The translations under genes were made by a program, and so were the position numbers. The notes below the pieces were generated by a model, which made no database searches, had not been told where the DNA came from, and was given only the letters and a program-made list of their open reading frames with translations. From NCBI GenBank assembly GCA_964551875.1, contig CAZKEV010000006.1, positions 1 through 63,383 on the forward strand: a stretch of 63,383 bases of DNA, read 5' to 3'. The DNA is from an uncultured Methanomicrobiales archaeon (lineage in GTDB: Archaea > Halobacteriota > Methanomicrobia > Methanomicrobiales > JACTUA01). Shown piece by piece: positions 15,380 to 33,602 of this stretch (positions within the stretch are counted from its first letter, which is position 1; the number at the start of each line of letters is the position of its first letter).

Positions 15380-15770
15380 TTATTTCCCGCGCGCCCACCG
15401 GAGACGGATGACAGGCACTCCCAGCGCGCCCAGGGTCGCCGGCGCGCCAAAGCCGGGAATGCCCGGGGATCGCCCCTCCCCGCCGGCGCGCCGGCTGCCC
15501 CACCTTCGGCCACCACCACCGCCCGGGGTTTGAACCGGCTTCGTCGCGGCGGTGAGGGTCCCGGCGTTCCACATCCACCGCGGTGGGGAGAACTATCCAG
15601 CGGCCGTTAGACCGGTTGTACCGGGCCAGGGCCAACTTCTGCGCATTGTTCCCAGCTGCCTTCAGGTCCGCGCCGGTATACCACACGATGACGGTGGCGT
15701 CCTTTGAAGGAGCCTCATCACCCCGTCTCCCGGAAAAGGAATAAAGAGGGTAGCTTTCTCCTGAGGTCAC
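15380..15770 (-). pseudogene. Frameshifted remnant of the C-terminal third of the PGF-CTERM protein 21551..22930
   Basis: KDATV.V.Y..ADLKAAGN.A.KLALARY.RS, GTLTAAT, AVVV and GIPGFGA..LGALG pieces lie in three different frames, all matching 21551..21910. Confidence 0.85.
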
Positions 15771-18700
15771 TTCAGGAGTTTCTCGATGGCGATTCCGCCA
15801 AGGGTCAGGGGGGTCGTCGGGTCGGCCGTGTCAGCGGCACCCGGCTGTGTATCGTATACCACAGCGCCCGTTGCCTTGTCCCAGATCCTGATCCGGAACA
15901 GGTCCTGTTGTGGTTTCGACCCGCCGTCGATCACCGAGACGAGGAAGCCGTAGGTCTTCTCCCCCTTGATCTTGCCGCTCCCCTGGTAGAAGGCCTTCTT
16001 TGCCTCCTTCTGGATCACGAGCCAGTCGTACGACATGGAGGTAAAGGCGATCTTCCCCTTCGGGAACTGGAACGCGGTCACCCCTTTGAAGGGCTCCTTC
16101 TTCAGGACCGGGTACCTCGCCAGGAACTCCAGGGTGGCTGGACCGGTTGCGGCCGGATCGGCTGCCAGGGCTCCCGCAGGGGACCTGATGGCCCCCGCTC
16201 CTGCCACGAACCCGCTCTCCGGATCATAGACGATAACGGGCTGGGTGCTGGTGGCAGTTGCCGTGGCATCCCTGCTATCCGTCAGGGTCAGGCTCACCGT
16301 ATAAAAGCCCGGCCTGGTGTAGGCATGAGTCCCGGTCACCGAGCCCGAAATCTCCGATCCGGTCTGTTCGTCGACCACGCCGGCTGACGTGATCCCGTCG
16401 CCCCAGTCAAAGACGGCCGTGTGGGTGTCGGAGGGATCGCGGAAGGCCGCGGTCGCTGTGATCCCGGTGTTCACCAGGGTAGGTTCGGTGGGTGCGGTTA
16501 TGGAATCGATAACCGGGGGCGAATTCAGCGACATCACGACCGTCTCAAAGACCGTGCCCGGCGGGTACACCGTGGTGATGCTCTTGAGGTCAGCGGAGAC
16601 ATCCGCGACCCGGATCACCTCTGCTGTGGCAGTCTTTGCCACGGGATCCACGGTCACCTTGATATAGGCGAGGGCGTACTCGAGGCTGTTCTGGGAACCT
16701 TCGGCCCGCGGGGTCGCAAGGTTGTAGGCAGGCCCGCCACCGGTCCCCGAGACGAAGTAATGGATGTGATTCACCAGGAACCGTTCGTAGGCATGAACAT
16801 GCCCGTTGAAGACCGCGAGCACGTTGTTTGCATAGAACTCGTCCTCCCACTCTGCCCTGATATTCTCATATCCGCCGAAGTGCTTGGAATCGGAACTGTA
16901 GGGCGGGTAGTGGAACGAGACGAACCGGAAGGGTTTCTCCGTTGCCTGGAGGTCTCCCTCCAGCCATGCACTCTGTGTCGGGAAATCCGGCCATGCCCAG
17001 TCATTGCTGTCCAGGATGGTGAAATGCCCGTCCCCGCAGTCGAAGGAGTAGTAGTCAGGGACGCCGTAGGCGGCGACGTAGTTCGGACCGTTGTCATCAT
17101 GGTTCCCCCGCGCCGGGAAGACCGGGAGGCCGGCCATCATGTTCTTTCCGGCTGCAAAGTACCGGTCCCAGTCGTCCATGCTGGCAGCATCGTTCACGAG
17201 ATCCCCGGAGTTGAGCACGAAGAGCACGTCCGGCTCCTCCGCGATCCGGTCCGCGACCAGCTTGTGCCGCTCCAGCTGGCTGTAGGTGGGGAGCTGGTCC
17301 TGCGTGTCGCTGTACATGACGAAGGTGAACGCACCGCTCTCCGGGAAGGTCCGGAAGTGGAGGTCGCCGGTTTCCCGGGCGCCGTACAAGACCCGGTAGT
17401 GGTAGAGGGTATCGGGGGCCAGCCCGGCAAGCGAAACTTGGTGGAGCTGCGTGCTCACCCCGTCGCTGGCGGTCTGGTCGTACGCGGTGTGTGCCGAATA
17501 GTACTCGTCTGTGGCGTACTCCACGGTCATCTCCGTCGGCCTCGCGGTTTTCGCGTTCACCGTCAGGCCGGTCGCCGAAGCACCGGTGAGGTATGGGCCC
17601 CAGGTGAGCACCGGGCGCACCTCGATGAGGTCAGTCTTCGTCTCGGTGTCGCTCCCGGCGATGTTTGTCACCGTGAGGGAGACCGTGTACGTGCCGGGAT
17701 CAGTGTAGATCCAGGAGGGGAACTGCTCGGTGCTGTCCACCATCCCGTCGTTTGTGAAGTCCCAGGCATATGCGAGGGGAGTCGTCCCGGTCGACTTGTC
17801 AATGAACTGCACCTCCAGCGGGGCGATCCCGGTCATCGGATCCGCGATGAAGTCCGCGGCCGGGGGTGTCGGGGGTTCCGTCACGGTGATGAGCCCGATC
17901 TTCGTCTCGGTGCTGCTCCCGCCTTCATTCGTTGCCGTCAGGGAGACCGTGCAGGTCCCGGCGGTGCTGAAGGTGTGGGAGGGGCTCTGTGCCGTGTCGG
18001 TTGACCCGTCGCCAAAGTCCCAGGCCCACGATGTCGGGGAACCCGTCGATGCGTCTGTGAACTGGACCGTCAGGGGAGCATACCCGGACGTGGTATCTGC
18101 GGTGAAGGATGCAACCGGTGCCGGGGGTCCACCTCCTCCGGTATATGTCACCTCAAGATAGGGACGTTTCGTAGCGTCGGCGTATTCACTTGAATAAAAC
18201 TTGACATAGTTAGTACCCTGGGATTCGGTCTGATCCTTTACCAGCCATCCATAATTGGGAGTGCCATCAGTAAATGCCTGCACGTCTGATGTAATATCCC
18301 ACACGACCCAGGAATTCGCAGTTGTCCCGGTTGCAGCACTGGAAATTGGCATGAGAACATTCTTACCGAAAATATTCCTCCATGTTACCAAGGTCTCGAC
18401 CCAGCTCTCGGTTACCCTGTGGACGTCATAGGTCCTGCCAGTGCCGACAACAAGGCTCCAGATGTCAAGATGTAGTGTCGCGGAGTCGATGGAAGCACCG
18501 GCAGGTATCGAGGTAAGATCAAAGTGAACGACTGTCCGCCGGTTCATGCCAGCCCTTGACATCACGTAGAGATAGTCGTGAATATCATCCCCATTTCCAT
18601 CCGGTGAATTCTCCATCAGGAGACTGTCAGCATCGGCAGGAATTGTGACTGTGGTAACCCCTCCCCCGGAACTCTGGACCGTGATATAACCAGTCTTCAC

Positions 18701-19951
18701 CTCGTCGTCACTACCTGCGGAATTCGTAACGGTGAGCTTCACCGTGTAGGTGCCGGCAGCAGGGTACACGTGGGACGGGTTCTGGACCGTTGCATCCAAC
18801 GTGCCGTCGTTCTCGAAGTCCCACGCGTACGTCAGGGGCGATGTCCCCATCGATTCATCGGTGAAGTGGACGATGAGCGGGGCGGTGCCGGTCAGGACAT
18901 CGGACGTAAAAGCTGCGGACGGGGGAACCGGTGCCGGGGTGACAGTGATGTAACCGTCCTTCACCTCGTCATCGGTTCCGCCGGCATTGGTCACCGTGAG
19001 CTTCACCGTGTAGGTGCCGGCCGTATCGTAGACATGAGACGGGTTCTGGGCTGTATCATCAGTCACGCCATCATTGTTAAAGTCCCAAGCCCACGACGTC
19101 GGGGAACCGGTCGATGCGTCAGTGAAATGCACGGTAAGCGGGGCGGTGCCGGAAGTCACATCCGAGGTAAAAGCCGCGACGGGTGCGACCGGGCCCGCGG
19201 AGCTGATGATCCGGATCTCGGAAACGTACTTCACCGAGAGGCCTGTTGTGGTCGGGTAATTCTCGCCGCCCTGGATGTAGTAATACCAGTACTCCGGTGC
19301 GGCAGCCTCGTGCCAGTCGTAGTTCCCGAACGCGTGGATTCCCCACGGGTTCACGCCGTCATCCGCGAACCAGACGAGGCGCATGCCGTCCGTGTAGCCG
19401 GTGTCGGGGTATTTGCCCGGGGTGGCCGGATCAAAGTCAAAATCGGTATACCATGTCAGGACCATCGGCCCCTCGCGGGAGGAGTACCCGTACACGTTCG
19501 CGTACGCGAAATCCTTGGTCATCCCGTCTGATGCGCGGACACGGAGCGTGTCGCCCGGGGACATTCCCCCGACGAGGTTGCAGAGGTCTTTAAAGTCTGT
19601 GCCCTTCGCAGCGCCCATGTCCTTTTCCTGGACATTGGTATCTTCGTCGGGGTTCCAGCGGAGCGCCTGTTCGGTTGCATCATCAGGGTCGTCCACAAAG
19701 ACCGGGCCCTGATGATAGTAATGGATCGTTCCGTCGCCGAGTACGGGCAGCGTATCCCGCATCTGCTGGTACGTCAGGGTCTGTTCGGCGAGGACGGTCG
19801 TCCCGTCGCTCGCGTATTTTACAACATGCACCTGGGTCGTTGCCGCCATCGCGGGTGCGATGAAGAGCGCAAGGCATATGATCAGGAGGAGGTATCCTCT
19901 GATTCCTATCGGGAACAGGGGGTGATTTATTGTTGTGTGTGCCATCGCCAT
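15767..19951 (-). CDS. ~1394-aa secreted protein: long SUOX-like domain, 2 PKD, DNRLRE-like domain, 2 PKD, FN3 + purple-acid-phosphatase metallophosphoesterase, PKD-like, C-terminal domain shared with the 1531-aa protein
   Basis: Start at 19951 after a GAGGAG RBS; signal peptide; phosphoesterase motifs DTQD, GDLVND, GNHD, FHYPPY, GHVH; VHFDLTSIPAGASIDSATLHL. Confidence 0.87.
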   Translation of the reverse strand: MAMAHTTINHPLFPIGIRGYLLLIICLALFIAPAMAATTQVHVVKYASDGTTVLAEQTLTYQQMRDTLPVLGDGTIHYYHQGPVFVDDPDDATEQALRWNPDEDTNVQEKDMGAAKGTDFKDLCNLVGGMSPGDTLRVRASDGMTKDFAYANVYGYSSREGPMVLTWYTDFDFDPATPGKYPDTGYTDGMRLVWFADDGVNPWGIHAFGNYDWHEAAAPEYWYYYIQGGENYPTTTGLSVKYVSEIRIISSAGPVAPVAAFTSDVTSGTAPLTVHFTDASTGSPTSWAWDFNNDGVTDDTAQNPSHVYDTAGTYTVKLTVTNAGGTDDEVKDGYITVTPAPVPPSAAFTSDVLTGTAPLIVHFTDESMGTSPLTYAWDFENDGTLDATVQNPSHVYPAAGTYTVKLTVTNSAGSDDEVKTGYITVQSSGGGVTTVTIPADADSLLMENSPDGNGDDIHDYLYVMSRAGMNRRTVVHFDLTSIPAGASIDSATLHLDIWSLVVGTGRTYDVHRVTESWVETLVTWRNIFGKNVLMPISSAATGTTANSWVVWDITSDVQAFTDGTPNYGWLVKDQTESQGTNYVKFYSSEYADATKRPYLEVTYTGGGGPPAPVASFTADTTSGYAPLTVQFTDASTGSPTSWAWDFGDGSTDTAQSPSHTFSTAGTCTVSLTATNEGGSSTETKIGLITVTEPPTPPAADFIADPMTGIAPLEVQFIDKSTGTTPLAYAWDFTNDGMVDSTEQFPSWIYTDPGTYTVSLTVTNIAGSDTETKTDLIEVRPVLTWGPYLTGASATGLTVNAKTARPTEMTVEYATDEYYSAHTAYDQTASDGVSTQLHQVSLAGLAPDTLYHYRVLYGARETGDLHFRTFPESGAFTFVMYSDTQDQLPTYSQLERHKLVADRIAEEPDVLFVLNSGDLVNDAASMDDWDRYFAAGKNMMAGLPVFPARGNHDDNGPNYVAAYGVPDYYSFDCGDGHFTILDSNDWAWPDFPTQSAWLEGDLQATEKPFRFVSFHYPPYSSDSKHFGGYENIRAEWEDEFYANNVLAVFNGHVHAYERFLVNHIHYFVSGTGGGPAYNLATPRAEGSQNSLEYALAYIKVTVDPVAKTATAEVIRVADVSADLKSITTVYPPGTVFETVVMSLNSPPVIDSITAPTEPTLVNTGITATAAFRDPSDTHTAVFDWGDGITSAGVVDEQTGSEISGSVTGTHAYTRPGFYTVSLTLTDSRDATATATSTQPVIVYDPESGFVAGAGAIRSPAGALAADPAATGPATLEFLARYPVLKKEPFKGVTAFQFPKGKIAFTSMSYDWLVIQKEAKKAFYQGSGKIKGEKTYGFLVSVIDGGSKPQQDLFRIRIWDKATGAVVYDTQPGAADTADPTTPLTLGGIAIEKLLK
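15822..16138. repeat. 317-bp direct repeat copy 2
   Basis: Identical to 10497..10813. Confidence 0.9.
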
Positions 19952-19958
19952 CTCCTCC

Positions 19959-21155
19959 TCACATATTGCTGTGGTGGTGAGTGACCACCAGTCTGACGTA
20001 GTCGGTCTCGATACGCGAGAAGAATACTTCATCCCCGGGAGTATTTTCAACCGCAAGAACTGTCACATTGCCTGAATTGACGTAGTTGGTGATGCCCGAG
20101 GAAATCTCTCCGGTCAGGGTAACTTCTTCGCCGCTTGGGGTGCTGTCGAGTTCCTGGAATCCCGAGCCATCCCAGATATAGAGGCTTGTTCCATTGGCAC
20201 TGCCGCCGGAATCATGCCAGCCTCTCCCGTTCCATGTGATGACCAATTTCTCAAGCTTATTGACAGGGCCATCCTTGTCTGTCGCCGTATCAATTGAGAA
20301 GTTGAACCTGTGCGCTGCATAGGAACCGGCACTAAAGTCGATCTGGAATGTTCCCTCGTCATCAGCGATGTTACTGGTTGAACCTAATGGATTACCCGGT
20401 ACGTCAATCGAACTAGGTGGATCCGAGCTCACCTCTCCCTTATACGCCCATCCCGTTGTATCACCGGTCGTGTTGAAGTCGTGCCGGTGCGGCGGGTAGA
20501 TCTTGAGCTGGTTCACGTACTTGACGGACAGTCCCTTTGCCGAGGGCCAGATGCTGCTGTAGTTGTACCGGTACCACGGTGCAAGGGAATCCCGCATTTC
20601 AACGAGCGTGAAGTTCAGGGAGTCCGCAACGCCGTAGGGGTCTGGCCGCGGGTTATAGAAGAACGAGCGGATACCTTCCGAATACCCGGGAACTGGTCCT
20701 GACACGCTGTCCCACCAGGCGAGGACGAGGTTCCCCTGGCCGCTCGCAGGTTCATAGATATTCGTGTAGTTGAAGTACCGGGTCATGCCGTCGCTTGCCT
20801 TCACGAAGATCTCATCCCCGGCAGACATACCGCCCACGAGGTCTGTCAGGTTGCGGACATACGTTCCGTTGTGCCCGTAGTAGAGGATCATGTTCTGCCC
20901 CGCCGTCCCGTAGGGATCAGCAGAGTTAAACGTTGGTCCCTGCATGTAGAGGGGGCCGTTGCTGTCGACGTTTAGGAATGACGACTGCATCTGGCTCCAC
21001 TCCCGTAATTCTGACCTTTCGGCAAACGAGTAGTTGTTTGCCGCGTACTTGATCACCGTGACATTCTCGCTCGCCGCAGATACCGGCGCGGCCAGTATCC
21101 CGCAGAGGACGAGAAGCAGGGTGAAAACAAGAAATCGTTGGCTCAGCCTGTTCAT
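19959..21155 (-). CDS. Secreted protein with a divergent long SUOX-like domain and a C-terminal beta-rich domain
   Basis: Signal peptide; NVTVIKYA, YMQGPTFN, NLTDLVGGM, VKASDG, LVLAWW, WPSAKGLSVKYVNQLKIY. Confidence 0.82.
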   Translation of the reverse strand: MNRLSQRFLVFTLLLVLCGILAAPVSAASENVTVIKYAANNYSFAERSELREWSQMQSSFLNVDSNGPLYMQGPTFNSADPYGTAGQNMILYYGHNGTYVRNLTDLVGGMSAGDEIFVKASDGMTRYFNYTNIYEPASGQGNLVLAWWDSVSGPVPGYSEGIRSFFYNPRPDPYGVADSLNFTLVEMRDSLAPWYRYNYSSIWPSAKGLSVKYVNQLKIYPPHRHDFNTTGDTTGWAYKGEVSSDPPSSIDVPGNPLGSTSNIADDEGTFQIDFSAGSYAAHRFNFSIDTATDKDGPVNKLEKLVITWNGRGWHDSGGSANGTSLYIWDGSGFQELDSTPSGEEVTLTGEISSGITNYVNSGNVTVLAVENTPGDEVFFSRIETDYVRLVVTHHHSNM

Positions 21156-21550: not shown

Positions 21551-22930
21551 CTACCACCTCCGCGTTACCCGCAGGCAGAGGGTGGCTGCCCCGAGGGCAC
21601 CCAGGGCCGCCATCGCACCGAAGCCGGGGATGCCCGAGGGCTTCGTCTCTCCTGCCGCGGGTATGGCTCCGGTACTGCCGCCCGTCACCACCACCGCCCA
21701 CGTGCTGAACCGGTTCGTGGTAGCGGTGAGGGTCCGGGCGTTCGCGTCCACGGTGGTGGAGAGCACCGTCCACTTGCTGTCAGAGCGGTCGTACCGGGCC
21801 AGCGCCAGCTTCCGGGCATCATTCCCGGCCGCCTTCAGGTCGGCGTCGGAGTACCGGACGGTGACGGTGGCGTCCTTCGCGAGGAGCCCCATCACACCGT
21901 CCACGGAGAAGACCGTGGACGCGGCCTTCACGCCTTCGGGGAGCGGCGGCAGGTCGCCCCGGAAGGGCACCACCGAGACGGTGCCGCCGGAGAGGAACGC
22001 CCCTTGCGGGAACCGTACCGTGATCTCGCCGCCGGGGGTGGCCAGCGTTGCCGGGCTGTCAGGGGAGACCGCCACGCTGGCTTCAGCAAACGGCGGGATG
22101 TACTCCTCCTGCACGGTGAAGGAGTTACTATCCTCATCCAGCACAGTCCCGTCCTGGAGAGTCATGGTGGACTTCACTGTGTAGGTGCCGATGGGGAGCC
22201 CGGTAGTGATCCCGGTCTCGAACCGGACCGATTGGCTCGGGATCATCGCCCGGGAGAAGGGCTGGCTCGCTGCCGTTGCCACCGTGCGCCCCGCCGCATC
22301 TGTGACGGTCAGCCGGTTCACCGCCCCATAGTAGTGGTGGTTCCCGGTATTCTTCAGCACCGTAGAGACTGTGATGGGCTTCTGTGCCACCACCTCCCCC
22401 ACAGAGACCGAGGTGATCTCGCCGGTCTCGACCAGCTTGGTGCCTTCGACGGTGAGCATCACGGGCACCAGCACGGCAGTGGCAATGGCCGCCTGGCCGG
22501 TGCCAGAAGCCGCCGGGTGGATCAGGATCACGGCGTACTGCCCACCATCGCCCACGTCACGGGGTACCCTGATGGTGGCGGTGAACTCCCTCCGGTCACC
22601 AGGCTGGAGGCGGACCGTAGGCGACGGCACTGAGACGATGGATCGGGCGGAGTAGGGGCTGGTGTCCATGTCAGGCGTAAGCCCTGCGTAAGAACCTGCA
22701 TCCAGGGACTGGCCGAAGCCCAGGATCTCGATGGCGTATTCCGACGCCGCATCCTCCGGCTTGATGGAGATCGCCATCGGGAAGATATAATTCGTTCCGG
22801 GCTTCACGTCCATCATGATCTTGGCACCTTCCACCTTCAGGGCGGCAGCGGGAATAATCAGCGCGGCAATAAGTACCAATAAAATTGTGGTGATACCCAG
22901 ATGTGAAGAAGATACTTTGTTGCCAGTCAT
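21551..22930 (-). CDS. PGF-CTERM-anchored surface protein with Ig-like domains resembling DUF916/DUF3324 or pilus chaperones
   Basis: Signal peptide; VRLQPGDRREFTATIRVP, VLKNTGNHH; C-terminal GIPGFGAMAALGALGAATLCLRVTRRW (PGF, TM, basic tail). Confidence 0.8.
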   Translation of the reverse strand: MTGNKVSSSHLGITTILLVLIAALIIPAAALKVEGAKIMMDVKPGTNYIFPMAISIKPEDAASEYAIEILGFGQSLDAGSYAGLTPDMDTSPYSARSIVSVPSPTVRLQPGDRREFTATIRVPRDVGDGGQYAVILIHPAASGTGQAAIATAVLVPVMLTVEGTKLVETGEITSVSVGEVVAQKPITVSTVLKNTGNHHYYGAVNRLTVTDAAGRTVATAASQPFSRAMIPSQSVRFETGITTGLPIGTYTVKSTMTLQDGTVLDEDSNSFTVQEEYIPPFAEASVAVSPDSPATLATPGGEITVRFPQGAFLSGGTVSVVPFRGDLPPLPEGVKAASTVFSVDGVMGLLAKDATVTVRYSDADLKAAGNDARKLALARYDRSDSKWTVLSTTVDANARTLTATTNRFSTWAVVVTGGSTGAIPAAGETKPSGIPGFGAMAALGALGAATLCLRVTRRW

Positions 22931-22950
22931 CGAGCGTAATCCTCCATAGT

Positions 22951-22975
22951 GATTCTTTTTGGAAAAATAAAGAAT
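22951..22975 (-). terminator. Hairpin/T-tract between the 168-aa and 459-aa genes
   Basis: ATTCTTT-N10-AAAGAAT inverted repeat containing a TTTATTTTT run on the minus strand. Confidence 0.5.
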
Positions 22976-23020
22976 TATGATGGGAATCAGACGGATCCCT
23001 CCCGGTGAGCAATCCGCTGA

Positions 23021-23527
23021 TCAGTTTGCATTTGCCGTGAACGTGATAACTATTTGATAAACCCCGGCTGCATCACCAACTGAGATTACCTGCCTCACAT
23101 ATGCCGTTTTTGTAGTACCTGATGGAGCTGGAGCTGTCCCGGACATGAATGAAGGGTCAGGCAAATAAGTAGTTGGATTTGCTGCTTGTCCGAAATTGAA
23201 CTTCGCGGCGAGTTTTAGCCCAGTTCCATCTGCCACCGTGGTCATGTATCCGTTATTGGTTGCTTTTGCGTCGGTGGCAGTTACAGACCAGCTCGCAGAA
23301 TTCGTAGTAACATTAACAACAGACGATCCCGTTGCAGGAGTTCCGTTGAGCATAGTAGCGAAAGGTATCGCCGCAGGAGCAACCGATAAAGCCACAGTAG
23401 GTCCAATCGTCCCTGACACAGTGACGTTATCCATATCCGACGCCGCCGATACCGCTCCCGGGAGCACCAGGAGCACCAGCAGGGCTGCAAGGCCCGCTAA
23501 GAGCATCTTTCTCATCTTGCACCTCAC
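23021..23527 (-). CDS. 168-aa secreted pilin/WxL-like beta-sandwich protein (candidate fibre shaft subunit)
   Basis: Signal peptide; all-beta, Thr/Ala/Ser-rich; ends YQIVITFT; homologous to the C-terminus of 25296..27869; visibly lower GC. Confidence 0.8.
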   Translation of the reverse strand: MRCKMRKMLLAGLAALLVLLVLPGAVSAASDMDNVTVSGTIGPTVALSVAPAAIPFATMLNGTPATGSSVVNVTTNSASWSVTATDAKATNNGYMTTVADGTGLKLAAKFNFGQAANPTTYLPDPSFMSGTAPAPSGTTKTAYVRQVISVGDAAGVYQIVITFTANAN

Positions 23528-23528
23528 A

Positions 23529-23582
23529 CACCCTGCGCAACAGGGTGAACGGGAAAGACTTGAGGGGATGGTCTATAAAGGT
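23529..23582 (-). promoter_or_regulatory. Dedicated promoter (TTTATA at ~23574-23579) and 7-bp 5'UTR hairpin for the 168-aa gene
   Basis: Minus-strand CTTTATAG ~45 bp upstream of ATG; CACCCTG-CGCAA-CAGGGTG (23529-23547) next to a GAGGTG RBS. Confidence 0.55.
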
Positions 23583-23758
23583 TGCGAAACTTTTCTCAAA
23601 AGTTAATTAAACATAATTTACCTGCCGGAGAATGTGCGGCCTCCCCACATGCGCTTTGCCGGTGGTTTTTCCCCCTGCGTAAGGGTTCCTCGCAGATACG
23701 TGAACCGGGAGCTTTTATATCCTTGATGCCAGATCAGAGGGGTAGGCGCGGGCCTGCG

Positions 23759-24427
23759 CTACCGCGGGATCAGTTCACGGATGATCCCTGCTTCCGCCCG
23801 CATGAACCCGGCCTGCTCCCCGGATATGAGCCGGAACCGCTCGAAGAGGGTCACCCGGCTGGAGAAGACCTGGAGCTCGGCGCTGGCGGCCCGGTAATTC
23901 TTTCTCAGGATCAGCTTCTCTGTGATCTCCAGGTGGAGGGAGAGGAACCACTTCACCCACCCATCCACCGGGAGGGTCGCGATGTACCCCTGCAGTGCCT
24001 GGACCCGGGTCAGGGCACCGGGTTCCGACACGGTGATGTACTCGGGTTTCGTCTCCACGTCAGAGGTGGCGGCGTTTGAAACGGTGAGGATGACGGTATA
24101 GCTCCCGGGTCGGTGATATACGAAGGGCGGGTTCTGCGCGTCGCTATCCACAATCCCGTCCCCGTCCAGATCCCAGGCCCACGTCGTGGGGTTCCCGGGA
24201 GAGCGATCGGTGAACTGTACTGTCAGGGGGGCGTCGCCACTTCGGGGCGCGCCGGTGAAGTCCGCAGAAATGCCGGTGTCCGCAAGGATCGTACCCGAGA
24301 TGGTCAGGGACGCGCTCCCGTCCGCCGCTGGGGCGGATGGCGCAAGGGGGATAAGGAGAAGCAGGAGGATGGCGAGGAACTCCACTTTCCTGCCCGGTGT
24401 CCCGTACATAATTCTCTCCGTCATCAT
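23759..24427 (-). CDS. Secreted PKD protein with an N-terminal SLTISGT strand and a C-terminal helical (FIMAH-like) domain
   Basis: Signal peptide; [26 protein letters not shown]; amphipathic helical C-terminus. Confidence 0.78.
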
Positions 24428-25284
24428 TGCACCGATGGCCGCACTTCCACGGCAGCGAGGATCGGGTTGTTACGTCCCGCTGGCTTATTTACGCCTGCCA
24501 GGGGCCGGAGCTGCAGGTCCAGGATCCCGTCGGCCACCGTCACGATGTGGACCTCGTCATCGGCCTTATAGCGGCCGCCGCTCGCGGTGAACGGCCGGTA
24601 GGCGGAGGTCATGACAGTATTTTCCAGTACGATGTCAAAGACCCGCCGGTTGTCGTTGTAGTTCGGCTCCACGTACTTCGTGGTGACCTGGAAGTTGCCG
24701 TTTCTCACGGTGAACCGGTACAGGAGCTGGCTGTTCGAGACGGTGCGCCACTCCTGGAAGAGGGGGTCGTCGAGGGTGTTCCCGATGGGCTGCTTGGTCC
24801 GGTCGGTGGAGGAGGATGTGATCCAGCCGTAACTCCCGCTGGAGTAGCGTTTATCCTGGAGCCAGAGAAGCCCCCCGGTGTCAGTATACGTCGTCTTCGG
24901 GGCGCCGCAGTTGAGCCGGTAGGAGACGCGGATGTACGCGGGCTTCACCTCCACGCTGGCCCCCTCATCGTTCTCCACCCTCAACGAGACGGTGTAGACC
25001 CCGGCCAGCTGGTAGGTGTGCCTCGGGTTTTGCTCGGTGGAAGTGGACCCGTCGCCGAAGTCCCAGGCCCATGATGCAGGACCTCCGGTCGAGAGATCGG
25101 TGAACTGCCCGGTGAGGGTTGCGAGACCGGAGGTGGGCGTGCCGCTGAACTCGGCGACGGGGCCCCCGGTCGCTACCACGGTCCCCGAGATGGTGAGGGT
25201 TGCGGAATCTCCGGCTGCCACACCCGCCACCAGCAGGAGGGCCCCCAGCAGGAGGGCGGCCGCAAAGAGGAAGGGAGTCCTCAT
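24424..25284 (-). CDS. Secreted PKD + malectin-like protein with an N-terminal TLTISGT strand
   Basis: PKD ([16 protein letters not shown]); malectin motifs [40 protein letters not shown]. Confidence 0.85.
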
Positions 25285-25295
25285 CGCCGCAGCCC

Positions 25296-27869
25296 CTAAT
25301 CCGCGTATCCCGTGAAGGTGATCACGATCCGGTACACATGCGACGCGGTGAGGGCAGGGTCACCCGCCGCGATCACCTGCTTGAGGCCAATATCGTAGTC
25401 TCCAGAGCTGGTGCCGCTCTGCACCTCCTGGTCGGTCCCGGAGAGGGTGACGTAACTCCTGGTCCCGCTCTTCACCTGGATAGCATTGGTGAGGAACTCA
25501 CCTCCCGTCACGTAGGCGGGGTCGGCGTACTCGGCCATCTTACCCTCGGTGCCCGCGGGTTTCCCGCCATCCTTGGCGTCCTTCACCGAGACGTGCCAGG
25601 TGCTGGCAGTGGTGGTGACGGAGAGGTTCACGGAGGAGGTATTCTCGTTGTCACCAGGCACGAGATCCCAGCCAGAGATGCCACCTGTAGTGTCGATGGA
25701 GATGGTGGGCGTGGTATAGGTGACCACGTAGGCTGCCTTGGTCTCGGAATCGGACCCGGCAGCATTGGTGGCCGTCAGGCCCACGGTGTAGCTGCTGGTG
25801 CCCGTGTAGGTGTGAACGGGATTGCGATCGGCGGAGGTCCCCCCGTCCCCGAACGTCCAAGACCAGGAGGTGGGGGTGTTGGTGGAGGTGTCGGTGAAGT
25901 ACACCGTCAGCGGGGCCGTGCCGGTGATGCTCCCCACCGGCTGGGACATGGTGACGATGTCGTCCAGATAGGCGGTGATATCCCTCGGATTTGAACCTCC
26001 CCGGTTCACTTCAAACCGGATGGTGTGGGGTCCGGAATAGGAGGAGGTATCTACGGTGTCTTGGGTCCAGATGCTCGTGGAACCGGTGTAGCTCTTTTTC
26101 TCGGCGCCATCAATCTTCACCTTGAGGTTCCCGGTGGTGGAGGCGGGGATGTGGTAGGAATAGGAGAGCTGGCTCACCGAACTCAGGTTCACGCTCTGTT
26201 CAAGGAAGCTCTGATCATTCGTATTGTCCGCGGCCAGGCTCGCTGCATAGGTGCCGGTATGTTTCTGGGTGGTTTGAACGGAAGCCGAACCAGTGGAAGT
26301 CCATCCCGAAAGGGTCCCGGTCTCGAATCCCCCGTTCGCAGTCGTGTTCACCCGGCCGTAGAAATTCGCCACCGGCACCGAGCCAACCGTGATATAGTTC
26401 GTTTTCGTCTCGACGTCGCTTCCCGCGGCATTCGTAGCCGTGAGCTTCACGGTGTAGGTACCGGGTGATGAGTAGGTGTAAGAGGGATTCCTCACAGTAC
26501 TGTCCGTGGTCCCGTTGTTATCGAAGTCCCAGGCCCAGGACCGGCCCGAGGGGTTTTCCATCTTGGTTGAGAGATCGGCGAACTGGATGGTCAGGGGCGC
26601 AGGGCCGGAGGTGCCGGACGTCAGGGCATCGATATTGTCCAGGTATGCCGTCGTTATTGAACCGGCCTGGTCAAAGGTACAGACGGCCTGGAAGGTGAGG
26701 GTGTGGGTCCCGGTATATCCCGAGACATCGATGACGTCGACCGTAGCTGTTCCCCCTGCATCATTCACATAAGCAACCCCCTCGCCGTCAATCAGGACCT
26801 CGAAATACCGCTCCTGGCCGGAAAAGACCTTTCTCCAGAACCTGAGGGTGGAGACACCGGTCAGGTCCACCTGCTGGGAAATATTCGCAGGCTGGTTCAG
26901 CCTGCCGACCAGTTTGGCCCCGTATGTACCCGATTCCTTGGTTGTCGTCGAGGTTACATCGCCCATGGCTGTCCACCCGGAGGGGAAGGGTAAGGTTTCA
27001 AAGCCTCCGTTCACGATCCTGTCGGTTTTGATCTGGGCCGAGAAATCCGCGACAGGAGCTGGCTGAGCTTCGGTGGTGAACATGTCAATCCACCGGACGT
27101 TCTTGATAGTATAACCCCCGCCGGAGGGATAGAAGATCCCGCCCGACACGTAGTAATAGTAATTGCTGGGAGGCAGGCCCTCGTACATGTCCCCGAGACC
27201 TGACACATGCTTGCCCCAGGGGTTCCGGGAGGTATCGCCAAAGAACGTCGCCCGCATCCCGGTCGGGTAATCCGGGCCGGTGTAGCCGCTGGTGAGACCG
27301 CTCTCGCCGGCATCCACCGACCACCAGGTGATCACGTACGGCCCCAGACCCGCTGTGGGCGTGTAAATGGCCGAGTAGGGAAGCTCTTTGTAGAAGTTGT
27401 CCACGGCTGTTACGCGGACCTTCCGGCCCGAAGGAAGCCCTCCCAGCAGGTTGCAGAGGTCCCTGACATCCGTCCCCTTGAGCTTGCCCAGGTTCTTCCC
27501 GAGTACGTTGCACTCCTCCATCTGGACATACGCGCCGAGCGTCGTGTTCCAGACCCGGTCCCACTTCTCCTGACTTTTATTCCACTCCCCTCCCTGATAC
27601 ACATACCGGCCAGCATAGGTATCGTTCCACTCGTTCGGGAAGATCGGCCCCTGGAAGTAGTAGTAGGTGCTCCCATCTCCCTGGACTGGCAGGGTAGCCT
27701 CCATCTGCTGGTAGGTGAGGGTTGTCTCGTTGATGGGGGTGAGGCCGTCCGTTGACAGACGCCGGACGGTCACCTCCGTCGTGTAGACTGCCGTTCCGGG
27801 GACCACCAGGAACGAGAGGATGCACAGGGAGAGGAGGAGAAGGGCGAAGTGATGTCTTGTTTTTTTCAT
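25296..27869 (-). CDS. ~857-aa secreted protein: long SUOX-like domain, two PKD domains each with a nested CBM-like jelly roll, C-terminal pilin-like domain
   Basis: Start [13 protein letters not shown] (27869); [31 protein letters not shown]; NGGFET motifs; ends [12 protein letters not shown]. Confidence 0.85.
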
Positions 27870-28138: not shown

Positions 28139-30052
28139 TCACGTGACGGTGATGTACCTGCTCCGGGTCAGGCTGTCACTGCCGTTGGCGTTCGTCACGG
28201 TGAGGGATACCGTGTAGGTGCCCTTCTTCGTGTAGGTATGAGCAGGGTTCTGGAGTGTAGAGCTGGTCCGGTCGCCGAAGTTCCAGGACCAGGAGGTGGG
28301 GTTCCCGGTGGACTGGTCCGTGAACTGGACGGTGAGGGATGCCTTCCCGGAGGTGGGGGCACCGATGAACTGGGCGTCCGGCGGGTTCTGGGAGGGGGCC
28401 GTCACTGTAATGTAGCCGGTCTTCGCCTCGCCATCGCTCCCCCAGGGATTGGATGCCGTCAGGGTTACCGAGTAGGTGCCCGCGTTCTGGTACACGTGCA
28501 TCGGGTTCCGGGCGGTGGAGGTGCCGCCGTCGCCGAAACTCCAGGACCATGATGTGGGCGTATTGGTGGACTGGTCCGTGAAGGAGACGGTGAGGGGCAT
28601 GGTCCCGCTGGTGGGGGTGCCGGTGAAGGCAGCCACCGGCGGGTAGCCGTTCACCGTGACAAATCCTGTCTTCGTCTCGGTGTCAGAGCCGTAGGCGTTG
28701 GTGGCCGTCAGGGTCACCGTGTAGACCCCTGCGGTGGCATAGGTGTGGGCAGGGTTCTGGGCCGCAGAAGTGCCACCGTCCCCGAAGTTCCAGGACCAGG
28801 AGGTGGGGCTGTTGGTGGAGGTGTCGGTGAAGTACACGGAAATGGGCGGATAGCCCGTGACGCCAGTGGGCCGGGAGGCCAGCGCGGTGATGTCATCCAC
28901 GTAGCCGGTGATCTTGTTCTGCTTGCTGGTCCCGCTGCGGGCGTTGAACTTCACTGTATGAACACCTGAGTAGCTGGAGGTAGGGATGATTCCCTGGGTC
29001 CAGCCGGTGACCGTGCTGTAGGACGCAACCTTTGTGGTGTCGATGAACACCTCTAGCCAGCCGGAACTCACCGTGTCAACCCGGTACCAGTAGGTGAGCT
29101 GGGGGACGCCGGTCAGGTCCACGCTCTGGGAGACGTACGAGGTGGAACCCTTTGCCGAGGAGAGCCTGGCGGCGTAGGTCCCGGTGTGGACCGGCGTCGT
29201 AACCACCGAGGCCCCGGACTGGGTCCAGCCGGAGAGGGTGCCGGTCTCGAAGCCGGGGTTCGTCACCACGTTTACGTCAGCGGTGAACCCTGCGAACGGT
29301 GGCGGGTTCGGGACGGGGTCATCGGAGAAGATGGCGATCTCGCTCACGTACTTCACCGAAAGGCCCGTCGTAGTGGGATAGTACTCGGACCCCGAGACAT
29401 AGTAGTACCAGTACTGTGAGGCAGCGGCCTCGTGCCAGTCATTGTTCCCAAAGGCGTGGACGCCCCATGGATTCGTCGAGGTATCGGAGAACCAGACCAG
29501 CCGCATGCCGTCTGTGTAGCCAGTGTCGGGATAATGTCCGAGGTACATGGAGAGCCCATCCACGTACCAGGTGATCGCCATCGGGCCTTCCCGGGAGGAG
29601 TACCCGTACACGTTCTCGTAGGCGAAGTACTTGGCAAAGCCGTCGGACGCCCTGACCCGGATCGTCTCACCGGCGTTCATGCCGCCAACGAGGTCACAGA
29701 GGTCCTTCACGTTGGTACCCTTCACGGCCCCCATGTCCTTCTCCTGCACGTTCGTGTCCTCCTCAGGGTTCCAGCGGAGCTGCGCCTCCACCACGGGGTC
29801 CGGGTCATCGATGAAGACCGGCCCCTGGTGGTAGTAGTGGATCACACCATCCCCGAGCACCGGGAGGTTGGCCATCATCCACTGGTAGGTGACGGTCTCT
29901 TCGTCCAGGACCGTGGTTCCGTCGTTCGCATACCGGACAAGGTGAAGCTCCGTCGTGGCCGCCGCAACGGGGGCTGCCAGGAGGAACAGCATGCAGGTGC
30001 ATACCAGCACCTGCAGCAGCCGGGAGTCGATTCTTCCACGCATGGGAATCAT
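28139..30052 (-). CDS. 637-aa secreted protein: long SUOX-like domain, CBM-nested PKD, further PKD repeats
   Basis: HYYHQGPVF, KGTNVKDLCDLVGGM, TNPWGVHAFG, PTTTGLSVKYV; NPGFETG; repeated SWSWNFGDG. Confidence 0.88.
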   Translation of the reverse strand: MIPMRGRIDSRLLQVLVCTCMLFLLAAPVAAATTELHLVRYANDGTTVLDEETVTYQWMMANLPVLGDGVIHYYHQGPVFIDDPDPVVEAQLRWNPEEDTNVQEKDMGAVKGTNVKDLCDLVGGMNAGETIRVRASDGFAKYFAYENVYGYSSREGPMAITWYVDGLSMYLGHYPDTGYTDGMRLVWFSDTSTNPWGVHAFGNNDWHEAAASQYWYYYVSGSEYYPTTTGLSVKYVSEIAIFSDDPVPNPPPFAGFTADVNVVTNPGFETGTLSGWTQSGASVVTTPVHTGTYAARLSSAKGSTSYVSQSVDLTGVPQLTYWYRVDTVSSGWLEVFIDTTKVASYSTVTGWTQGIIPTSSYSGVHTVKFNARSGTSKQNKITGYVDDITALASRPTGVTGYPPISVYFTDTSTNSPTSWSWNFGDGGTSAAQNPAHTYATAGVYTVTLTATNAYGSDTETKTGFVTVNGYPPVAAFTGTPTSGTMPLTVSFTDQSTNTPTSWSWSFGDGGTSTARNPMHVYQNAGTYSVTLTASNPWGSDGEAKTGYITVTAPSQNPPDAQFIGAPTSGKASLTVQFTDQSTGNPTSWSWNFGDRTSSTLQNPAHTYTKKGTYTVSLTVTNANGSDSLTRSRYITVT

Positions 30053-30314
30053 CCTCTGATATTGCCACCTCTCCTATTATCGCCGGGTGTCATAAAGATG
30101 TATGACTTATCCAGAAATGTTCAACTTTTATCATTAACCTACCTGATAGACTGCCATTGAAGGCAACCCGTTTGTTCCTGTCAGGTGGCCGACAGGCGGG
30201 ATGCTGATAAATGAGTTGACTTCCGTGAAAAGTTAGGAAGGTATAAATAATCCTCCCGGAAACCGGAAAGCCGTGATGGGAGACAGGGCTCTGGGGAGAT
30301 GGTACAGAGGGGGA

Positions 30315-33300
30315 ATGTCGATCCGGTTCTTTGCTGCAGCAGTCCTGCTCATGCTCCTTCTCGCCGCACCGACCCTCGCTGCCACCACCCAGGTCCATGT
30401 GGTGAAGTATGCGAACGATGGTACTACCATCCTGGACGAGCGAACACTCACCATCGCGGACATGGAGACCAATCTGGGGCTCCCGGTCTACGGGGATGGG
30501 ACCACTCACTACTATTTCCAGGGCCCTACGTTCGATTTTAACAACCTGTGGGATCCAGCGGAGGAGGTCAATGTATTATCCCGGGACTATGGCGCAGTGA
30601 AGGGAACCGATGTCAGGGACCTCTGCAACTTGGTGGGAGGCATGAAAGATGGCGAATATGTGACCATCAAAGCGTCGGATAGTTTCGCCAAGAGTTTTGA
30701 CTACGATGACGTCTACACTCCGGATCCGGACGCGATGCGGATGGTGCTTGCCTGGTATGTCGGGGAGGATGGCACCGGGGAAAGTCAGGGAGTTGGCTAC
30801 CCGCCCGGTTTCTACAGCGGCATGCGTCTCTTCTTCTTTGCCGATACGAGCACAAACCCGTGGGGCTATCATGTCTTCGGCCTCTGGGACATGCACGAGA
30901 ATCTGGCCGAGGACCGCTGGCATTACTACTACGATGGCAACTTCTGGCCGTCCAGCAGCGGTCTTTCGGTAAAATATGTTGACAGGGTTCTCATCTACAG
31001 CGATGACCCGGTCCCGGACGTCGGCGATATTCAAATCACTTCCAGCCCGGAAGGAGCCACCATTTCTATCGACGATGTCGATGTCAAGCAGGCGACAAAC
31101 GCAACGCTCACTGGCCTTGACCTAGGCACGCATCTCGTCCGGGTGGCCCTTGACTGGTACCGGATGGAAGAACAGGAAGTAGAAGTACGGTGGGACGAAC
31201 CTGCCGTGATCCACTTCAACCTGGACCGGATGGAGGGGTCGGTGAAGGTTACCTCCACGCCTCCGAGGGCAAAAGTCTTCCTCGACGGGACCGACACCAT
31301 GAATGTGACCCCCTGCACGCTCACGGGTATAAGACCAGTGGTTCACACAGTGACGGCGAAGCTCTCCGGCTACACCGATGTCTCAGATACCATCACCGTG
31401 GAGGATGGTGAGACCGCCGAGCTGGACCTAGAGCTCGCCACCGCAGATTCAGGATCCGGCTCCGGTTCCGGCGAAACGGCTTCCTCGTCGGATACCGGCG
31501 GCTCACTGGTTACAGTGGCCCAAGGGCAGGTGAGGGGAGGGGTACTCTTTGCCACAACCCCGGGCGGCCCGTGGACACTCGAGCGCGGGGCATCTCGGAC
31601 CCAGGTCCTCCAGCTGGATCTCCCGCCCAATGCTACGATAATGCTCTCCCGGCTCTTCGTCTTCATGGGCGAGGAGCCTTCCGCGGCGGGGACCACGACG
31701 GCCCAAGCAGATCCCATCGTCACGGTCGGGGACAGGGTGGTGACTCCAGCGGCAGCCTACCGCGATTGCCGGCCTGGCGAAAGCAGATGCCCGGTCATAC
31801 GGACCCTGGCTTTTGACCTGCTTGGACGGGCGTTCCTGGAGGGTGAGATTCCGATAAATGTGGAGCACCCGGGCGGGCAGGCGGGCCCCCTGATCTGGTA
31901 CGGGGCCGGCCTCGTCGTCGCCTACGAGCGGGAGGGCGACCCGGAGACGAGATACTGGATCTCCGAGGGTGCCGACGGAATTCTCAGCGACCGGGATTCC
32001 CCCCTTCCGGAGTCCGAATCCCGTACCCTGGCGGACTTTCCGGGCGAGGTGAACCGGAGCCTCGTGCGGGAGGCGGTCCTTCTCCCGGTCTCCACGGTTC
32101 CGGAGGGAGGCAAGGGGGACGGGCACCTCGTGACCTTCAATGGCAACAGGTGGGTCTCCCCCCTGTCAGGAGACGGGGTATGGTCGGCCAGGATGAACGT
32201 GCGACCGTACCTCCGGTCAGCGGGGAACCAGGAGACGGTGGAATCCGAAGGGGTCTCGGGAAGGGGGGACCTCATGGAAAACCGGGCGGCGATCCTAGTC
32301 GTGACCTACGGGAACGGGACTACCGGGGAGGAACCGGCCGGCATTGAGCCACTTGTACCCCCTGAGATCGATGCCATGCAGCCCGGGGGGTCTTCCCCAT
32401 CGGCCGGAATCCTTCCGGGGGAGAACGCAACATCCCCAGAGGAGCTCCCTGCCTGCTTGAACCTGACCGTCACCTCGTCGCCGGACCGGGCCCTTGTGTC
32501 CCTGGACGGGACCTATCTCTCGAAGGTGACCCCCCTGACCCTGGCCTGCGTCGCCCGGGGGGTTCACGAGGTGAAGCTCGGTCGGGACAACTTCAAGGAC
32601 CGGGCGGTCACCGTCGACCTCCAGGCCGATACCACCATCCACGAGGACCTGTCGTCGGCCTTCCCCCTCTATGCGAGCCTCCTCAGGGACTACAGCGAGA
32701 AGATTAACGTCACGGCGGATCGCTGTGGGGGGGTGTACGTGACCTCCTACACCGAGAAGGCAAGCATTCTCCTGGACGGGAAGGACACCGGTCAACTCAC
32801 GAACGCCGTCCTCACCGGGCTGAAGCCCGGGCTCCATACCATCCGGATCCGTTCAGATAAGACCGAGCTCTCAGACAATACCCGCCAGGTCTGGGTCTAC
32901 CCCTCCGTCATTTCCTCAGTCGGCTTTGAGTCCTGGCCTCCCGTGAAGCGGGAGGTGACCGTGCAGTCCGCCTACCTCAGGAAGGCCGAGTTCACCGTGA
33001 ACGGGAGGTACCCCTCCTTCAAGATCCCGAGGAAGGTGACACTGCCTTCCTGGGAGAGCTTCATCACTGTCAGGGTGAACGGCACGTACCTCTCGTACCC
33101 GGCCTGGGCCATCGACCACAACGGGACCCTGCAGGTCAGGCGGCAGGACCCATCGGCCCTCACCACTCTTCAGGTCGTGTCGGACCCCCGGGGTGCAGAC
33201 ATCCTGGTGGACGGGTTCCCGACGGGCCTCACCACCCCCGCCGTCATCCGGAACCTTTCGCCGGGCAGCCACCGGGTCCTCGTCTCCGCCCCGGGGTACC

Positions 33301-33602
33301 TTCCCCGGGAGGAGCTCATCATTCAGCAGGACATGCCGGGCGAGGGGCCGGACAATGTCCATGAGTTCTTCCTTGATTCCAACGCATACGGATCCCTGGA
33401 GCTGACGAGCACGCCCCCCGGTGCCCGCATCTTCATCTTCCAGCGGGACACGGGTGAGAAGACCCCCCATGTCTTCCCGTACCTCGACATCGGCACCTAT
33501 GACGTGAAGCTGGAGGGTGAGGCGGATTCCCGGACCTTCTACGGGATAACAGTCACGCCGTACGGGCATACTTCCCGGCACGTGAACCTGTCCGTCGTAT
33601 AA
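30315..33602 (+). CDS. ~1095-aa secreted protein: long SUOX-like domain, PEGA repeats, DUF3344-like domain, further PEGA repeats
   Basis: Signal peptide MSIRFFAAAVLLMLLLAAPTLA; PEGA motifs (ITSSPEGATISIDD, VTSTPPRAKVFLDG); YGAGLVVAYE...YWISEGAD. Alternative start at 30273. Confidence 0.85.
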   Translation: MSIRFFAAAVLLMLLLAAPTLAATTQVHVVKYANDGTTILDERTLTIADMETNLGLPVYGDGTTHYYFQGPTFDFNNLWDPAEEVNVLSRDYGAVKGTDVRDLCNLVGGMKDGEYVTIKASDSFAKSFDYDDVYTPDPDAMRMVLAWYVGEDGTGESQGVGYPPGFYSGMRLFFFADTSTNPWGYHVFGLWDMHENLAEDRWHYYYDGNFWPSSSGLSVKYVDRVLIYSDDPVPDVGDIQITSSPEGATISIDDVDVKQATNATLTGLDLGTHLVRVALDWYRMEEQEVEVRWDEPAVIHFNLDRMEGSVKVTSTPPRAKVFLDGTDTMNVTPCTLTGIRPVVHTVTAKLSGYTDVSDTITVEDGETAELDLELATADSGSGSGSGETASSSDTGGSLVTVAQGQVRGGVLFATTPGGPWTLERGASRTQVLQLDLPPNATIMLSRLFVFMGEEPSAAGTTTAQADPIVTVGDRVVTPAAAYRDCRPGESRCPVIRTLAFDLLGRAFLEGEIPINVEHPGGQAGPLIWYGAGLVVAYEREGDPETRYWISEGADGILSDRDSPLPESESRTLADFPGEVNRSLVREAVLLPVSTVPEGGKGDGHLVTFNGNRWVSPLSGDGVWSARMNVRPYLRSAGNQETVESEGVSGRGDLMENRAAILVVTYGNGTTGEEPAGIEPLVPPEIDAMQPGGSSPSAGILPGENATSPEELPACLNLTVTSSPDRALVSLDGTYLSKVTPLTLACVARGVHEVKLGRDNFKDRAVTVDLQADTTIHEDLSSAFPLYASLLRDYSEKINVTADRCGGVYVTSYTEKASILLDGKDTGQLTNAVLTGLKPGLHTIRIRSDKTELSDNTRQVWVYPSVISSVGFESWPPVKREVTVQSAYLRKAEFTVNGRYPSFKIPRKVTLPSWESFITVRVNGTYLSYPAWAIDHNGTLQVRRQDPSALTTLQVVSDPRGADILVDGFPTGLTTPAVIRNLSPGSHRVLVSAPGYLPREELIIQQDMPGEGPDNVHEFFLDSNAYGSLELTSTPPGARIFIFQRDTGEKTPHVFPYLDIGTYDVKLEGEADSRTFYGITVTPYGHTSRHVNLSVV

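Follow-up and report, generated by a model that had tools for sequence, protein, structure and literature searches.

The five-gene cluster analysed here occupies positions 21551-27869 of a 63-kb stretch of DNA (63,383 nucleotides, hereafter the window) from an uncultured Methanomicrobiales archaeon, and the surface systems to which it is best compared are both bacterial and archaeal. The WxL or csc clusters known from Lactobacillales, Listeria and Bacillus encode a small secreted protein in which a single beta domain takes up nearly the whole chain, a large multidomain protein that ends in the same domain and, right after the small gene, a tandem immunoglobulin (Ig)-like protein that ends in a membrane anchor. 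This last protein, WxLIP, consists of DUF916 (PF06030), DUF3324 (PF11797) and a transmembrane helix, and AlphaFold2 (AF2) predicts that one of its strands completes the sandwich of the bacterial WxL domain. WxL domains are regarded as confined to bacteria, and the mechanism of the WxL cluster is still unclear (PMC9772566). The chaperone-usher pili (Fim, Pap, CFA/I, Caf1, Csu) combine pilin subunits, end proteins such as FimH or PapG and two-Ig chaperones, while the donor-strand filaments of archaea (the Sulfolobus threads of Saci_0406, the AbpA bundling pili, cannulae and tafi) are built from beta-rich subunits that are exported by Sec or Tat and joined by donor strands. None of these filaments is known to have a dedicated chaperone, and their assembly is an open question. 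The subunits of the threads resemble type 1 pilins, and the study describing them found no chaperone (PMC9715654); cannulae are described as polymerising chaperone-free.

The window cluster shares with the WxL clusters a small secreted protein of 168 amino acids (aa) that is almost only one beta domain (PIL, for pilin-like), a large 857-aa protein that ends in this domain and, encoded right after the small gene, a 459-aa tandem Ig-like protein with a predicted C-terminal membrane anchor (CHAP, for chaperone/WxLIP-like). With the chaperone-usher pili it shares the pilin-like fold of the small subunit, a Gly-containing N-terminal strand that aligns with the donor strand of FimG, a putative end protein of 857 aa that joins cargo domains to a strand-less C-terminal pilin domain in the manner of FimH or PapG, and, in CHAP, a likeness to two-Ig chaperones that extends to a flexible loop ahead of the final strand in domain 1. 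It would also share with the archaeal filaments exported beta-rich subunits joined by donor strands, but differs from them in that its most constant feature is a conserved chaperone-like gene. The association of pilin-like subunits with an anchored partner resembling WxLIP and PapD forms a real, conserved and so far unannotated module in archaea.

One pilin-like domain in a small and a large protein

The five genes lie in one direction on the minus strand in the list of open reading frames (ORFs), and each of the five proteins starts with a Sec-type signal peptide. Their coordinates in the window are the following.

25296..27869, minus strand: gene of the 857-aa protein, secreted and multidomain (ORF list, Pfam/NCBIfam, N-terminal paralogue alignment)
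25299..25709, minus strand: C-terminal PIL domain of the 857-aa protein, residues 721-857 (BLASTP and the PIL hidden Markov model, HMM)
24424..25284, minus strand: gene of the 286-aa protein, with signal peptide, strand motif (25177-25209), PKD and malectin domains (Pfam, strand HMM, motif scan)
23759..24427, minus strand: gene of the 222-aa protein, with signal peptide, strand motif (24287-24316), PKD domain and a C-terminal region of about 88 aa (Pfam, strand HMM)
23021..23527, minus strand: gene of the 168-aa protein, the small PIL subunit, with signal peptide, strand MDNVTVSGTI (23405-23434) and a pilin-like beta-sandwich (residues 43-168)
21551..22930, minus strand: gene of the 459-aa protein CHAP, with three beta domains, a linker and a tail made of PGF, a transmembrane helix and basic residues

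The 857-aa gene is separated by 11 nucleotides (nt) from the 286-aa gene, which the start of the 222-aa gene overlaps by 4 nt; gaps of 231 nt and 90 nt lie on either side of the 168-aa gene, before it and before the 459-aa gene respectively. For the 168-aa gene, the ATG at 23515 (164 aa) is the likelier start, since the relatives begin at MRKM. An identical five-gene order is present in one metagenome contig of the Joint Genome Institute (JGI).

A first-pass annotation, made from the letters of the window, had considered the 168-aa protein homologous to the last ~137 residues of the 857-aa protein, and this holds: BLASTP aligns the two with 32% identity over 142 aa (E 4e-7, residues 721-857), and the HMM of the PIL family scores the 857-aa C-terminus at E 2e-20. 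Searches of Pfam, NCBIfam and the PDB sequences with the 168-aa protein alone gave no match, and a word-indexed homologue search retrieved 7 relatives, to which a repeat with a 95-sequence profile added little; an exhaustive profile search reached 1046 PIL cluster representatives at E<=0.001. These are either stand-alone proteins of 150-180 aa or the C-terminal domain of proteins of up to 4342 aa.

The AF2 monomer model of the 168-aa protein, computed with an alignment of 95 sequences, has a predicted local distance difference test (pLDDT) of 91.7. When it was compared with the PDB by Foldseek, the top 50 matches consisted almost entirely of pilins from chaperone-usher systems, including the pilin domains that tip adhesins carry, among them CfaB, FimF/G/A/I, Caf1, CsuA/B, CsuE, PapE and PapG, with target-normalised template-modelling (TM) scores of 0.42-0.65 against single-domain pilins and root-mean-square deviations of 3.4-5 A for the best matches. 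The PIL profile leads to the same group by another route, its best match among the PDB sequences being the FimG precursor (E 0.0046), where the archaeal consensus TDTVTVSGTV is aligned onto ADVTITVNGKVV. This segment is the N-terminal extension of FimG, the donor strand that completes FimH, and the match list of the profile includes 5jqi, 'FimH bound to FimG N-terminal extension'. At the other end of the domain, the column statistics of the 95 relatives give a conserved motif G-x-Y-x-I-T-V-T-F-T, whose alternating pattern seems to resemble the last strand of type 1 (chaperone-usher) pilins. The 168-aa protein and the C-terminal domain of the 857-aa protein have one pilin-like beta-sandwich in common, and on this point the Foldseek list and the FimG alignment agree with what had been proposed. 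Among the folds that had been put forward for comparison, the chaperone-usher pilins were recovered, including CfaB and CsuA/B, but neither TasA nor, within the top 50, a WxL chain. The Foldseek top 50 of PIL contains no thread, bundling pilus, cannula or tafi subunit, and a relationship to TasA/camelysin, threads or cannulae was rejected, as none occurs in the PDB match lists.

An identity of PIL with the WxL domain was also considered and rejected: seven family members gave no PF13731 match at E<=10, and hhalign returned a probability of 14% against the small WxL, for the last strand only, and of 0.2% against the large WxL. The WxL domain has two Trp-x-Leu motifs, whereas PIL has one conserved Trp (W80, in W-x-V) and the C-terminal motif T-F-T. 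The archaeal cluster also differs from the WxL loci in encoding no LPXTG protein.

As a separate observation, the small PIL protein and its relatives P0002-P0005, only 46-53% identical overall, have near-identical signal peptides (MRKMLLAGLAALLVLLVLPGAVSA, window 23440-23527, minus strand), so that in these proteins the signal peptide is far better conserved than the mature part.

CHAP and the conserved PIL-CHAP gene pair

The 459-aa protein had been described as a two-Ig protein anchored by PGF-CTERM and resembling either DUF916/DUF3324 proteins or pilus chaperones. The structure search supports the resemblance, but the AF2 model (pLDDT 90.1) contains three beta domains, not two, followed by a disordered linker and a terminal helix.

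22448-22840, minus strand: CHAP domain 1 (D1), residues 31-161
22448-22513, minus strand: candidate donated strand, residues 140-161, made of the low-confidence loop and the conserved hydrophobic last strand of D1
22112-22423, minus strand: CHAP domain 2 (D2), residues 170-273
21683-22081, minus strand: CHAP domain 3 (D3), residues 284-416
21554-21637, minus strand: C-terminal PGF, transmembrane helix and basic tail, after the linker

In the model, a loop of low confidence (about residues 141-150) separates the last two strands of D1, and the strand after it, TAxxVPVxxT, is nearly invariant in the relatives. The best Foldseek matches are 9i25_C, the WxLIP of E. faecium locus A bound to the long WxL, and 9i1y (E 7e-14 to 1e-12, target TM 0.59-0.66); they are followed at about 1e-7 to 1e-6, with a target TM of about 0.5, by the chaperones CfaA, CsuC, CupB2, Caf1M, PapD and FimC. 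The alignment of CHAP with the bacterial WxLIP by hhalign has a probability of 82% (E 1e-5) over 169 colinear columns that cover the second half of D1 and all of D2, and it places the archaeal loop opposite the long hairpin of WxLIP, which moderately supports homology with WxLIP; the bacterial WxL and WxLIP alignments were built from plasmid loci located through published tryptic peptides of EfmWxLIP3. At the level of Pfam, the match to the WxLIP domains stays below the gathering scores: PF06030 is found below threshold in 34 of the 62 relatives (best 1.7e-4) and PF11797 in 4 of them. Generic Ig-like families (fn3_5, CopC, NPCBM_assoc) also match below threshold in the relatives, the 459-aa protein itself has in Pfam and NCBIfam only sub-threshold Ig-like matches and a weak PGF-CTERM match, and no sequence-level match to the chaperone families was found.

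CHAP ends in ...SGIPGFGAMAALGALGAATLCLRVTRRW, that is, a PGF followed by a transmembrane helix and an RRW tail. The PGF-CTERM model TIGR04126 scores it at 16.1 bits against a cut-off of 24.5; PGF occurs in 2 of the 62 relatives, and the C-termini inspected mostly read PGP, transmembrane helix and basic tail, a possible variant of the sorting signal. At least 181 close relatives exist, the few source names being Methanolinea, Methanoregula and Methanomicrobiaceae, and three of them carry the JGI label 'P pilus assembly chaperone PapD'. In structure CHAP is related to WxLIP and, at a greater distance, to the PapD-type chaperones, and it ends in a putative signal for membrane anchoring. It differs from WxLIP by its third beta domain and by the PGF/PGP-type tail that takes the place of a plain transmembrane helix, and from the pilus chaperones by its anchoring, its extra domain and the absence of Pfam-level sequence membership. 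A segment matching its third domain (HMM positions 350-396, E 5e-16) is also present in a 210-aa ORF of the window (15138-15770, minus strand) that has no Pfam match.

The order of these similarities raises the possibility of a display of the WxL type that forms no filament, in which the hairpin strand of CHAP would tether one PIL domain at a time, for example that of the 857-aa protein, which has no anchor of its own in its translation, and in which the 168-aa protein would have a regulating or competing role, perhaps like the small WxL, its own N-terminal strand being intramolecular or rearranging. WxLIP structures are well ahead of the pilus chaperones in the CHAP matches, and hhalign agrees; the association of a small protein, a large protein with the same C-terminal domain and a two-Ig anchored protein, as well as the gene order, matches the WxL loci (PMC9772566, PMC10599100), the small WxL gene standing immediately upstream of WxLIP in loci of Listeria, E. 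mundtii, B. thuringiensis and L. plantarum. The strand that AF2 has completing the WxL sandwich belongs to a bacterial system for which no fibre is reported. The dissimilarity of PIL and WxL set out above (Pfam and hhalign) nevertheless speaks against such a display, as does the lack of any WxL chain among the 50 best Foldseek matches of PIL, although 9i25 contains one. Moreover, Methanomicrobiales are not known to have peptidoglycan, the ligand proposed for WxL. A tethering of one to one would also leave unexplained the Gly-centred strand, the strand-only proteins and the strand-less siblings described below. On balance we consider this display somewhat unlikely. In the bacterial loci themselves (L005, L008, L009, L011 and L012), the small WxL has after its signal peptide a conserved S-x-G-x-V/I-x-F, and most copies continue with a linker rich in Pro and Asp before the domain; the segment resembles a tethered strand, and the WxL proteins might exchange strands too.

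Across Methanomicrobiales, the PIL and CHAP genes are conserved as a pair. A profile scan of genomes with a CHAP alignment of 15 sequences located 31 loci with CHAP, nearly all labelled as Methanoregula, Methanolinea or Methanomicrobiales metagenome-assembled genomes (MAGs). A PIL gene lies at most 400 nt upstream on the same strand in 26 of the 32 CHAP genes for which upstream sequence is available, and within 3 kb in two more. Around 34 PIL-CHAP loci, ORF clustering revealed no usher, peptidase, ATPase or other conserved family except PKD proteins. The lack of an usher separates these loci from the chaperone-usher systems, and so does that of an outer membrane, which Methanomicrobiales are not known to have. 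Close copies of the pair also occur on contigs (L013, L016 and L027) filed under MAGs labelled Methanotrichaceae, Dehalococcoidales and Methanosarcinaceae; these are probably mis-binned Methanomicrobiales contigs.

Proteins with and without the N-terminal strand

As stated in the first-pass annotation, the 168-aa protein carries, at the sequence level, an extra N-terminal strand that is missing from the 857-aa copy. This is MDNVTVSGTI, which lies after the cleavage site of the signal peptide and ahead of the first domain strand. Among the 95 relatives the residue at column 37 is hydrophobic in 98%, Gly39 is kept in 94% and I, V or L occupies column 41 in 95%. In the 857-aa protein the stretch ahead of PIL (AAYVVTYTT) still belongs to a PKD domain, of which it forms the end, and the conserved Gly is missing from it; no free donor-type strand is found there. 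The same strand directly follows the signal peptide in the 222-aa and 286-aa proteins, as had been noticed, with E-values of 1.6e-5 and 6.4e-4 for an HMM of signal peptide plus strand. In both proteins it is followed by a PKD domain and no PIL domain is present, a type of protein that has no counterpart in the chaperone-usher pili. Standing ahead of PKD in these proteins, the motif is more than the opening strand of a PIL domain.

A scan of the whole window for a signal peptide with the strand motif returned the 168-aa and 286-aa proteins and two unrelated sites in membrane-protein ORFs near 58-59 kb; it narrowly missed the 222-aa protein through its filter on the hydrophobic run, and the strand of this protein rests on the HMM. 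The motif was found by neither scan nor HMM in the other secreted PKD proteins nearby.

The other loci broaden this picture. In seven loci of the clade of the window, a large protein ends in a PIL domain with no free strand ahead of it, and in four loci of the Methanoregula type with two or three small PIL genes (L025, L029, L030 and L035), the PIL protein adjacent to CHAP starts directly with the domain, whereas its siblings carry the Gly-strand. The strand-less genes beside CHAP are as follows.

L025, 9344-9862: strand-less PIL gene adjacent to CHAP
L029, 9331-9867: strand-less PIL gene adjacent to CHAP
L030, 9378-9896: strand-less PIL gene adjacent to CHAP
L035, 9332-9877: strand-less PIL gene adjacent to CHAP

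A strand-less PIL beside CHAP is what one would expect if that subunit were an initiator or a tip. Proteins made of signal peptide, strand and PKD without PIL adjoin the pair in at least 11 loci, and seven large relatives of 608-808 aa (P0144, P0150, P0158, P0159, P0168, P0172 and P0214) have the Gly-strand after the signal peptide, then PKD-type domains and a C-terminal PIL. Taking each PIL domain to have a putative groove, one can distinguish four classes of subunits: the 168-aa protein with strand and groove, the 857-aa protein and the small strand-less PIL proteins of other loci with a groove only, the 222-aa and 286-aa proteins with a strand only, and some large relatives with strand, cargo and groove. 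The strand HMM, the PIL HMM and the loci with several PIL genes together support the existence of strand-only and strand-less partners, as the first-pass annotation had supposed.

It could be objected that the cluster merely groups ordinary secreted Ig-like/PKD or S-layer-associated proteins without any specific relationship of assembly, the N-terminal motif being the first strand of a beta-sandwich beside a conserved signal-peptidase site and the matches to pilins and chaperones being generic. The region is indeed rich in secreted PKD proteins, the relatives of CHAP give sub-threshold matches to many generic Ig-like families, and the Foldseek E-values of PIL are weak. The Foldseek lists of CHAP and PIL are, on the other hand, specific and do not mix Ig folds, and one and the same domain is found alone in small proteins and as the last part of large ones. 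Because the adjacency of PIL and CHAP stays tight despite a rapid divergence of PIL and because the strand motif occurs on proteins that continue with PKD and not with PIL, mere co-location is quite improbable.

The 286-aa protein has the Pfam domains PKD_4 (E 4e-21) and Malectin (E 2e-15), and the 222-aa protein PKD only, its C-terminal region of about 88 aa having no Pfam match. The 857-aa protein consists, according to Pfam and NCBIfam, of the signal peptide, an N-terminal domain of about 220 aa, two jelly-roll (NTTRR-F1/MAM-like) modules, two PKD domains and the C-terminal PIL. Its N-terminal domain had been called SUOX-like, a label that the sequence comparisons do not support: the domain has no Pfam match (E<=10) and no PDB sequence match, and hhalign aligns it with the genuine PF00174 domain of a 1531-aa neighbour at a probability of 0.8%, through a short 'V..A.DGy' motif only. 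The label stays a lead, not a finding.

This domain of about 220 aa stands right after the signal peptide in six secreted proteins of the window; its consensus starts with TTxVHVVKYAxDGTT and ends with GLSVKYV, and it has no Pfam or PDB sequence match. The proteins that carry it are a lineage-expanded family of surface proteins.

10442-15037, minus strand: copy of the ~220-aa domain, in the 1531-aa protein
15767-20056, minus strand: copy of the ~220-aa domain
19959-21155, minus strand: copy of the ~220-aa domain
25296-27869, minus strand: copy of the ~220-aa domain, in the 857-aa protein
28139-30052, minus strand: copy of the ~220-aa domain
30273-33602, plus strand: copy of the ~220-aa domain

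The 1531-aa surface protein contains between its PKD domains, at residues 612-763, an Oxidored_molyb domain (PF00174, E 5e-16, above the cut-off), predicted to be an extracellular domain of the molybdopterin type. Two genes a few kb away encode domains of the kind known from molybdate/tungstate-type transporters, namely PBP_like_2 in a binding protein (5393-6388) and TOBE in an ABC ATPase (7238-8311).

A model of assembly by strand complementation

The existence of four subunit classes and of a chaperone-like partner is what donor-strand assembly predicts, and this leads us to propose a strand-exchange chain primed by CHAP. In this model the cluster would encode a cell-surface assembly held by beta-strand complementation, on the plan of the chaperone-pilin and WxL-WxLIP systems; we advance it tentatively, as a reading that comes close to being probable. 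The five proteins would be exported by Sec. CHAP, tethered to the membrane by its PGF/transmembrane tail, would fill the open groove of PIL with the loop and the last strand of D1, as the PapD-type chaperones and Caf1M do and WxLIP is predicted to do. The N-terminal strand of a 168-aa subunit, in which hydrophobic residues alternate about a Gly that hardly varies, as in the extension of FimG or FimA, would then displace or replace the CHAP strand in the next PIL, and repeated exchange would chain the 168-aa subunits head to tail. The 857-aa protein, because it has a groove but no free strand, would be confined to the distal end, where it would display its PKD, jelly-roll and N-terminal domains. 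The 222-aa and 286-aa proteins, because they have a strand but no groove, could only plug into a free groove and would serve as caps or as PKD/malectin cargo. With the last, proximal groove held by CHAP, the entire assembly would be anchored to the cell, and no usher would be needed because there is no outer membrane to cross. We infer the polymerisation into a fibre, the pairing of donors and acceptors, the polarity and the length of the chain, which may be either long, forming a fibre, or of only two or three units, forming a stalk. The donor-strand fibre suggested by the first-pass annotation keeps in this form its pilin-like PIL, its chaperone/WxLIP-like CHAP and its strand-only and strand-less partners, and loses its SUOX-like tip.

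Several points weigh against this model. The strand-only proteins fit poorly into an anchored fibre, in which they would be rivals of CHAP for the proximal groove, and many loci have a single PIL gene with no obvious strand-less partner nearby. The Foldseek E-values of PIL are modest (1e-3 to 4e-2) and beta-sandwich folds are common. In the monomer model of the 168-aa protein, residues 31-44 have a pLDDT of about 88-97 with no strand assigned by DSSP, and this N-terminal segment could pack intramolecularly. The presence of both a strand and a PIL domain in some large relatives would also allow complementation in cis, and such relatives could either chain as bulky subunits or complement themselves. 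Finally, our search of the literature found no report of such filaments in Methanomicrobiales, nor any link between this order and donor-strand assembly.

In conclusion, our observations bring together a pilin-like subunit and a membrane-anchored chaperone-like partner, a pairing not yet described in archaea, and they define PIL and CHAP as protein families, neither of which is so far covered by Pfam or NCBIfam. The PIL-CHAP pair connects the question of how archaeal filaments are assembled with that of how the WxL proteins work, and it offers a model for strand complementation that would attach and extend surface proteins in cells devoid of an outer membrane. A wider interpretation, which we hold to be unlikely at present, is that this would be the first archaeal adhesive fibre system with a dedicated, membrane-anchored chaperone, that PIL-CHAP, WxL-WxLIP and the chaperone-usher systems would be three branches of one ancient system, and that the strand-tagged PKD/malectin proteins would represent a new 'plug-in' mode of loading cargo. 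For Methanoregula and Methanolinea, methanogens abundant in wetlands and digesters, the products of these clusters are candidate structures for adhesion or for the binding of substrates.

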